Shown: in pieces, positions 17,757 through 18,575 of the stretch | Position numbering within the stretch: the first letter of the stretch is position 1 | How the letters are laid out: the number at the start of each line of letters is the position of its first letter | Assembly: GCA_964016885.1 (NCBI GenBank) | Contig: OZ024743.1 | Coordinates: forward strand, 69,254,001-69,318,000 | Direction: 5' to 3' | From: Eledone cirrhosa | Lineage: Eukaryota | Length of the DNA stretch: 64,000 nucleotides | Position numbers and translations under genes: made by a program | The notes under the pieces: generated by a model | Databases searched by the model: none | What the model was told of the DNA's origin: nothing | What the model saw: only the letters and a program-made list of their open reading frames with translations

Positions 17757-18571
17757 AAATGGAAAAAATGAAATTTAATTTCTCACACTTAGTATGGCTA
17801 ATACTTAAATATAAGTATGTATACGTACATACATATATGTATACACACGTACAGTAGTATGTATATACTTTAAAAAACGCACAAACATATATATATATAT
17901 ATATGTACGTATGGGTTCACCGAACATTTATTATAATGCTCAGTTTGTTTGTAAACAAACAGTCCAAATTATTAGCCGTACAGTGTTCGGCAACCGATGT
18001 TGCCCTTTTGTTCAACACTGACAAAGGTATGATGAACTAGTTTCTAGCTTATTAGCTGTCATCAGCACCGTATACCTTCCTGTCAGTTGATTGAATGTAT
18101 ACATACTACTGTACGTATGTATACATATTTGTATGTACGTATACATACTTATATTTAAGTATCACCCCTACTAAGAGTGAGAAATGAAATTTCATTTTTA
18201 ACATTTATCGTTTTCGGTACACCCGGCCGACTAATTCACTCGATATGCAAATTAGGCTGCTCAGCCGTTAATATGCATAAGGAAAGTATATACTTTCCAA
18301 CGTTCAATCGACTGTCAGGAAGGTATCCGTTGCTGATGACAGCTAATAAGCTAGAAACTATTTTGTCGTTCCTTTGTCAGTGTTGAACAAAAGGGCAGCG
18401 ATGGTTGCCGAACACTGTACTGCTAATAATTCGGGCTGCTTGTTTTCAACCAAACCGAGCATTATAATAAATGTTCGGTAAACCCATACGTACATATATA
18501 TATGTGTGCAAGTATGTATGTATATACATACTACTGTACGTCTCTATATATATATGAATGTACGTATACAT

Positions 18572-18575
<4 letters not shown>
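17757..18575. mobile_element. Family A: inverted copy (17757-18095) followed by more than one circularly permuted ~425-bp unit
   Basis: CATACTACTGTACG at 18102 and 18527 gives a period of 425. HHR cores are at 18029-18071(-) and 18333(+, degenerate). Confidence 0.88.
18029..18071 (-). ncRNA. Type I hammerhead (family A)
   Basis: ACGGUG CUGAUGA CAGCU aaua AGCUA GAAAC ua GUU^CAUCAU. Confidence 0.72.

Follow-up and report, generated by a model that had tools for sequence, protein, structure and literature searches.

A stretch of 64,000 nucleotides of the Eledone cirrhosa genome (contig OZ024743.1, positions 69,254,001 to 69,318,000; the whole stretch analyzed is referred to as the window) contains two back-to-back arms of one repeat between two (TA)n runs, the first at 17,755–18,098 on the minus strand and the second at 18,098–~18,580 on the plus strand. 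This arrangement raises the question of what kind of element leaves two unequal, oppositely oriented pieces of a short unit in a microsatellite, and from which template they were copied. The left flank is a (TA)n microsatellite at 17,572–17,757, inferred to be the insertion target, and the right flank is another one at 18,576–18,605. The minus-strand arm, termed long (L), extends from unit position 203 via the origin to 111 with 91% identity to the unit majority sequence and enters (TA)n with a tail of ~51 bp (17,757–17,808, minus strand), defined as the segment of the unit that separates its short from its long 3′ end site (positions ~57–108). The short (S) arm (18,098–18,580, plus strand, 94% identity) comprises 1.13 units, from position 1 round to ~55–60, with a period of 425 bp and the unit start recurring at 18,098 and 18,523; it lacks the tail and ends in (TA)n. 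It includes an internal copy of the structured start region (18,148–18,280, plus strand), for which RNAfold predicts the same fold in the unit sequences of this family and a sister family. The initial annotation had read 18,096–18,575 as the 3′ part of the unit preceding its 5′ part with a period of 425; the period stands, but the permuted order is recast as 1.13 units with terminal redundancy.

The repeat, designated family A, has a period of 427 bp in the majority sequence of 25 full genomic copies (mean identity 97%), which served as reference and was numbered from window position 18,098. The unit is AT-rich on inspection and non-coding, the longest stop-free run in six frames of the tripled unit being 76 amino acids, and its length lies within the 150–450 bp retrozyme size. 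BLAST of 17,757–18,575 against the window and mapping onto the unit identified seven family A arms in four loci. Besides the locus described above, these are a solo L arm at 2,152–2,461 (plus strand, unit 226 to 111) with (TA)n on both sides; a pair at 36,949–37,399, in which an L arm (36,949–37,050, minus strand) stands back to back with an S arm (37,049–37,399, plus strand) and the triplet is GUC; and a member of an older subfamily at 59,928–60,327, consisting of an inverted piece with a non-canonical end (59,928–59,992, minus strand) and an S arm (59,991–60,327, plus strand). All copies reported initially, at ~2,140, 17,757 (minus)/18,096 (plus), 36,948, and 59,928, were thus recovered; the unit of ~425 bp without ORF was confirmed (425 bp in the arm at 18,098, 427 bp in the majority sequence), and three of the four loci indeed start with an inverted piece, with differing breakpoints.

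Exact 30-mer matches in the host genome (3.0 Gb) numbered 856 for the ribozyme core and 1,423 for the tail, and among the other units sampled, 52 of 135 and 43 of 70, respectively, matched exactly. The scaled count of ~2,200–2,300 family A units is a lower bound, because the sampled units were ranked by similarity. A family A copy of 87–89% identity was found in two of 20 arbitrary 10-kb stretches, and the total including older subfamilies may therefore be on the order of 10,000 or more, with a wide interval. Ends were mapped in the window and in 197 of 220 loci (23 sister-family loci were omitted), which yielded 286 distinct arms with identities of 80% or more; 270 of these lie away from locus edges. 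Family A arms have a median length of 300 bp and mostly span 0.2–1.6 units; 101 of the 270 are longer than one unit, four are longer than two, and 14 contain two full ribozymes.

The sister family B has a unit of 466 bp that is 61% identical to family A, is younger, and possesses a canonical stem II in which a compensatory change occurs. Its 3′ ends lie at positions 60 and 134, giving a tail of 74 bp, and its arms reach 31 units, with 31 consecutive hammerhead motifs in one arm (family B loci are L251, L311, L312, L366, and G000:C1:5738326-5752444). The hammerhead pattern had 9,721 matches in the genome, the first 100 listed being all of the B type, and family B is the better object for testing rolling-circle copying. 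Two further groups were observed: subfamily C (L183, L256, L265, L269), with a period of ~465–510 bp, U·U at the base of stem II, a GUA triplet, and tandem copies, and a 310-bp hammerhead family with tandem units entering (TA)n at window 63,280–64,000 (minus strand) and an inverted pair in L095.

The 3′ ends of the 270 family A arms fall on two sites. The L site (unit 100–113) accounts for 126 and the S site (unit 50–66) for 88 of them, with 56 located elsewhere; the 214 canonical ends are thus at sites ~51 bp apart and mostly in (TA)n, the exact end points being blurred by a few bases because the unit itself matches TA there. The 5′ ends are scattered around the whole unit with an excess at 311–400. 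The free circular permutation postulated in the initial annotation does not hold, since only the 5′ ends scatter. A TA-rich 3′ flank was present at 154 of the 214 canonical ends, compared with five of the 56 others and a background of 5.8%. TA also occurs on the 5′ side of 19 of 59 solo L arms and three of 23 solo S arms, and (TA)n is therefore likely the target rather than a product of insertion; a target duplication is unreadable within TA. The family A ends are not LTR-like. In the folds predicted by RNAfold for both A and B, the S site is situated in a hairpin loop, and GUGAG/CUCAC closes a junction whose U-rich linker contains the L site. The family A tail is a Penelope tail bounded by two reverse transcription start sites. 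In the anole Penelope element, two internal start sites of reverse transcription bound the tail, and both strands of AT-rich target DNA are cleaved and then extended by the protein (PMC11167929). For Penelope elements, Craig et al. (PMC8557442) described partial tandems, a neighboring copy in inverted orientation, and a tail of 30–40 bp that is often confined to one end; the tails found here are longer (~51 bp in family A and 74 bp in family B).

The two end sites are combined in a nearly strict manner. Among 76 back-to-back inverted pairs, 40 have two canonical ends, and these comprise 39 L/S pairs, one S/S pair, and no L/L pair (P about 4e-11 if the ends were independent). The sample was partly chosen on the tail, but such a choice favors L/L pairs rather than removing them, and the sets chosen without the tail contained 19 L/S pairs and one S/S pair. 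The piece after the S/S case (L056) ends at 111, and this case is probably L/S in reality. Junction overlaps of 1–6 nt were found in 22 of the 39 L/S pairs, and four L/S pairs have overlaps of 15–74 nt because the alignment runs on into simple sequence. In the remaining 36 of the 76 pairs, one or both ends are non-canonical, some having been cut by later insertions. Family B pairs with two canonical ends (n = 26), counted by hand with complex, edge-cut, and non-canonical pairs left out, consist of 25 L/S, one S/S, and no L/L. In an ORF-bearing Penelope-like family (L175, see below), 30 loci were selected on the long end, 12 of which have an opposite arm in the terminal region; this arm ends at the short site in 11 cases, elsewhere in one, and at the long site in none, so that all 11 canonical ends among the arms opposite a selected L arm are S. 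Twin priming of the L1 type on a single linear RNA was considered and rejected, as it fits few pairs (L012, L026) and most arms overlap widely. One Penelope protein dimer that acts on one ribozyme-made circle and cuts both (TA)n strands, with one start site per strand and two polymerases on that circle, is a tentative explanation of the pairing. If it were true, the strict L/S rule would be a general feature of Penelope integration that jointly explains the tail, the pLTR, and the inverted copy.

The hammerhead core CUGAUGA...GAAA occurs in the window at 2,162 (plus), 18,065 (minus), 18,333 (plus), and 37,150 (plus), and is decayed in the arm at 59,991. In unit coordinates, the CUGAUGA core is at 236 and GAAA at 257, with a predicted cut after 266. 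Stem I consists of six pairs, a UAU/U loop, and three further pairs (type I topology), stem II of four pairs on a C·A mismatch (10.1-11.1), and stem III of a single pair below the palindromic loop CUAG; the triplet reads GUU. The type I motif of the L arm (18,026–18,078, minus strand; core starting at 18,065) has an intact core, a stem I altered twice in its 3′ strand, and a predicted cut between 18,035 and 18,034, after GUU. The motif of the S arm (18,320–18,372, plus strand; core at 18,333) is probably dead, judging from mutations in stem III and the 3′ strand of stem I. The UAU/U loop of stem I, initially noted as common to this unit and the 310-bp family, is present in family A and was seen by eye also in the 310-bp family at 63,788/63,478 (minus strand).

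Rfam returned no hammerhead family among the best 150 of 213 window matches and no hammerhead at gathering score in three loci, the matches being microRNA-like only and on TA repeats; the hammerhead call is based on the motif and on covariation. In 12 distinct sequences of four subfamilies, 91.7% of the cells in the ribozyme stems are paired, compared with at most 52% in controls with slid alignments. Double changes across families affect six of the 15 ribozyme pairs and go back to a small number of independent events that mainly separate A from B. The older subfamilies have U·U at the stem II base and GUA as the triplet, and family B has G-C at the stem base. The active fold lies above the predicted minimum by 4 kcal/mol in family A and by 2 in family B, and the circular fold of the unit has a z of -10.6 against 25 shuffles; the unit is strongly self-complementary. 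By its sequence, the putative ribozyme of family A combines several weak features, namely the C·A mismatch, the GUU triplet, and a stem III of only one pair. In axolotl, retrozyme hammerheads that have either a single pair in stem III or a U·U mismatch show weak cleavage as monomers and good cleavage as dimers (PMC7229834), and the literature searched contained no account of activity with 10.1-11.1 mismatches.

Taken as a whole, family A is probably a non-autonomous retrozyme that is moved in trans by a Penelope-like reverse transcriptase-endonuclease, likely from a self-cleaved and re-ligated circle, and the initial view of a high-copy dispersed retrozyme or mini-Penelope with Penelope-style inverted ends is supported. 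The nature of the template was addressed with 134 canonical arms not selected on the ribozyme. Of these, 73 reach the predicted ribozyme cut, which 71 cross and at which two stop within 7 nt (3.6 expected); 11 of the 73 cross it twice. Since a linear monomer released by cleavage would place 5′ ends at 267 and none are piled up there, the template was circular or uncleaved. An alternative is thus the same Penelope-driven insertion from an uncleaved linear tandem transcript without a circle, the family A ribozyme being weak or vestigial. The read-through of the cut site fits uncleaved RNA equally well, the ribozyme features of family A are non-canonical, arms rarely exceed two units, and the stop rate doubles from 0.35 in round 1 to 0.62–0.73 in round 2, although this rise fits strand displacement on a circle as well as finite linear templates. 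Ribozyme cleavage was also unnecessary for the anole element in vitro, where uncleaved RNA was the main substrate and ribozyme-dead RNA inserted normally (PMC11167929), and eight of nine Xenopus retrozyme dimers failed to cleave (10.64898/2026.07.22.740005). Against a linear template, 5′ truncation alone would shorten the arms in every generation, and there is no long family A array among the first 100 matches listed on contig C1. Furthermore, the catalytic core has been kept between families that are only 61% identical, and cleavage, better in the dimer, is documented for an axolotl hammerhead with a basal mismatch in stem II (PMC7229834).

The variants common to the arms, which like the anatomy, the end sites, the pairing rule, and the cut-site read-through are read directly from the insertions, bear on the same choice. 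Non-consensus alleles of family A are shared at a rate of 0.25 between rounds and 0.22 between inverted arms, compared with 0.06 between loci. For recurrent alleles, 53 (rounds) and 52 (inverted arms) are shared versus ~19 and 22 expected, and 142 and 173 are unshared, as would result from later mutations superimposed on a template in common. In family B, the respective rates are 0.85, 0.87, and 0.17 (arms >3,500 bp were skipped), and most loci carry one locus-specific haplotype across all rounds and both arms. For example, L366 contains 17 identical cut-to-cut units on both strands with 3.3 differences to the nearest other locus, and L251 has seven units with 0.3 differences. So many different haplotypes, each present in every round and in both arms of its locus, call for repeated single-unit bottlenecks, which a monomer circle supplies directly. 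Long family B arrays are heterogeneous, with 3.3, 2.4, and 2.8 differences per unit pair in L355, L367, and L311, respectively, and dimer-like repeats in L355; arrays thus also change after insertion and could become homogenized in that way, and only 66 of 87 units have their nearest neighbor within their own locus. On balance, the uncleaved linear transcript is an unlikely template. An RNA circle likely served as template in family B, where the rolling-circle copying proposed initially is well supported, and this proposal has moderate support in family A itself, for which a circular template is rather probable.

A second alternative is that the unit is merely the pLTR of a full-length Penelope element and that the copies are its 5′-truncated ends. 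The signature of tail and inversion is indeed the same in autonomous elements (L175; PMC8557442), Xenopus retrozymes resemble pLTRs (10.64898/2026.07.22.740005), and the ORF-bearing Penelope families available for comparison constitute a small, partial sample. Yet the arms continue into the same unit and not into an ORF tail, 101 of the 270 exceeding one unit, and no ORF-bearing element with the family A unit as pLTR was present in any locus examined. Neither did the Penelope loci L111-L190 and L368-L397 have a unit-like tail or ribozyme beyond ring copies, nor did a young Penelope family with an 830-aa frame, 30 GIY-YIG loci, and 20 extended loci beyond separate ring copies. No ORF-like flank is shared in 90 family A loci compared; shared flanks of ~175 bp and ~900 bp were rejected as element parts, because they are other repeats inserted at differing unit positions. 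The pLTR reading is consequently very improbable. The shorter of these repeats is SINE-like and occurs at varied unit positions in L027, L054, L058, L079, L081, and L090 as well as at window ~16,150–16,270, and the longer one ends in (CAT)n and occurs at varied unit positions in L059-L061, L081, L084, and L100.

The best partner candidate is the L175 family (L175, L398-L427), which has an ORF with RVT_1 and GIY-YIG domains and a CX4CXXC motif before the nuclease and would be Neptune-like according to the description in PMC8557442. Its copies have two end sites in (TA)n, separated by 36 bp, and its end motifs, CTTA..T (S) and TTTTCCA.T (L), are similar to those of family A. Its 3′ region contains only an odd hammerhead-like motif starting with UUGACGA. 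The case for this family is circumstantial, consisting of the target, the end motifs, and a similar divergence (96–97%); as none of the ORF elements examined shares the unit, a partner assignment is based on end motifs and target only. At L357:3747-4570, a family B arm is joined 5′ to an inverted, truncated GIY-YIG fragment in a possible two-template insertion; it was rejected as proof of a partner, being a single case that may reflect chance or a deletion, and 30 loci of that GIY-YIG family having no ring-like 3′ region.

Several other elements were observed in the window. Positions 9,734–15,436 hold a 5′-truncated member of a Penelope-like family that is very young; its segment 9,734–10,135 is inverted. 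This family has an 830-aa frame, a tandem period of ~6.7 kb, and a long simple-sequence 3′ region; all 150 scored matches are 100% identical over the last 147 aa. It gave no Pfam match, and a regular-expression search of L171 detected no hammerhead core. Hammerhead-like cores of other families are located at 15,976, 18,654, 34,526, and 35,209 (plus strand) and at 53,645 and 58,362 (minus strand), several of which resemble motifs beside GIY-YIG frames elsewhere. Back-to-back inverted repeats in (TA)n were seen by eye beside family A loci at 2,470–2,740 and 17,300–17,570 and are possibly Penelope-type insertions of other families, and positions 248–1,326 contain a LINE-like reverse transcriptase fragment (RVT_1, E 1e-12).

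The third alternative, a satellite or MITE-like DNA repeat whose inversions and partial tandems arose by DNA rearrangement after insertion, could draw on the unit-level duplications in long sister arrays and on the strong self-complementarity of the unit, but it is scarcely credible and largely refuted by the end sites and the L175 pairing, since retrotransposition is indicated by 3′ ends that are fixed while the 5′ ends scatter, by the L/S rule and the targeting of TA, and by a ribozyme conserved at the RNA level, and DNA fold-back would not yield one long and one short end.

For the preferred explanation, a circular retrozyme copied by a Penelope-like protein, we infer the enzyme, the cleavage, and the circle, and the following course of events can be envisaged. 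A locus with two tandem ribozymes would be transcribed, and self-cleavage of the transcript would release a monomer whose ends are then ligated into a circle. The Penelope protein would bind the structured unit region 48–185 and nick both strands of (TA)n; one nicked strand would then prime at S and the other at L, ~51 nt further 3′, possibly helped by a TA match of 2–5 nt. The resulting cDNAs would be of variable length, could extend through the ribozyme junction and past a full turn, and would stop mainly in the hairpin-rich part. Joining of the two cDNA ends, often via microhomology of 1–6 nt, would produce an inverted pair, and a single cDNA joined directly to the target would give a solo arm.

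L1 twin priming also generates an inverted 5′ segment from two target primers with microhomology at the junction, as in family A, but its second primer acts at a variable upstream site and its pieces do not overlap. In family A, the second site is fixed and the arms often cover the same unit sequence. Plant LTR retrozymes have LTRs, type III hammerheads, and a 4-bp target duplication, whereas family A has a type I hammerhead and no LTR. The non-autonomous Chlamys element MRC1 is, like family A, a short non-coding Penelope passenger, with pLTRs and head-to-tail multimers; the non-autonomous Chlamys elements, however, share 3′ sequence with autonomous families, of which none was found here, and the Chlamys clade is described as having no canonical hammerheads (PMC8557442).

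Family A belongs to a known kind of element, the non-LTR retrozymes, which are proposed Penelope passengers (PMC7229834; 10.64898/2026.07.22.740005). Like family A, metazoan non-LTR retrozymes are non-coding, 150–450 bp long, and low in GC, have one type I hammerhead per unit and a self-paired predicted circle, and co-occur with Penelope-like elements (PMC7229834; 10.64898/2026.07.22.740005). The one-pair stem III with a palindromic tetraloop is found in axolotl Amex1, and the mismatch at the base of stem II in Amex2 (PMC7229834); unlike the metazoan retrozymes compared, family A joins both weak features with GUU (PMC7229834; 10.64898/2026.07.22.740005). Circles and cleavage have been demonstrated for metazoan retrozymes and are predicted for family A, which consists mainly of arms in inverted pairs in contrast to the array-forming metazoan retrozymes (PMC7229834; 10.64898/2026.07.22.740005). 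The accessible text of these two sources gives no description of fixed ends, tails, or inverted arms. In the literature searched, subscription papers, Repbase, and Dfam aside, no description of family A, retrozyme tails, or inverted arms was found, nor was a counted long/short rule, although older Penelope papers may note the asymmetry. The earlier basis for Penelope mobilization and rolling-circle copying was co-occurrence, pLTR similarity, and circles, the first two of which had led to the proposal of a Penelope partner (PMC7229834; 10.64898/2026.07.22.740005). To this, the insertions described here add a retrozyme tail, near-strict pairing of start sites, junction read-through, and single-haplotype multimers, so that families A and B bear both on how animal retrozymes are copied and on how Penelope makes tails, pseudo-LTRs, and inversions. 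They also offer a small system for reconstitution, with a template of 427–466 nt whose start sites are mapped, a target that is known, and an enzyme candidate from the same genome.

Penelope-like elements resemble family A in being truncated at the 5′ end, in forming partial tandems with an inverted copy beside them, in having a tail that is often restricted to one end, in inserting into AT-rich DNA or (TA)n, and in using two internal starts of reverse transcription, but the autonomous ones have the ORF for reverse transcriptase and GIY-YIG that is absent from family A (PMC8557442; PMC11167929). They also differ in the use of the start sites, for which the anole element displayed no apparent strand difference in vitro (PMC11167929), whereas in the insertions analyzed here these sites are nearly strictly split between the two arms.
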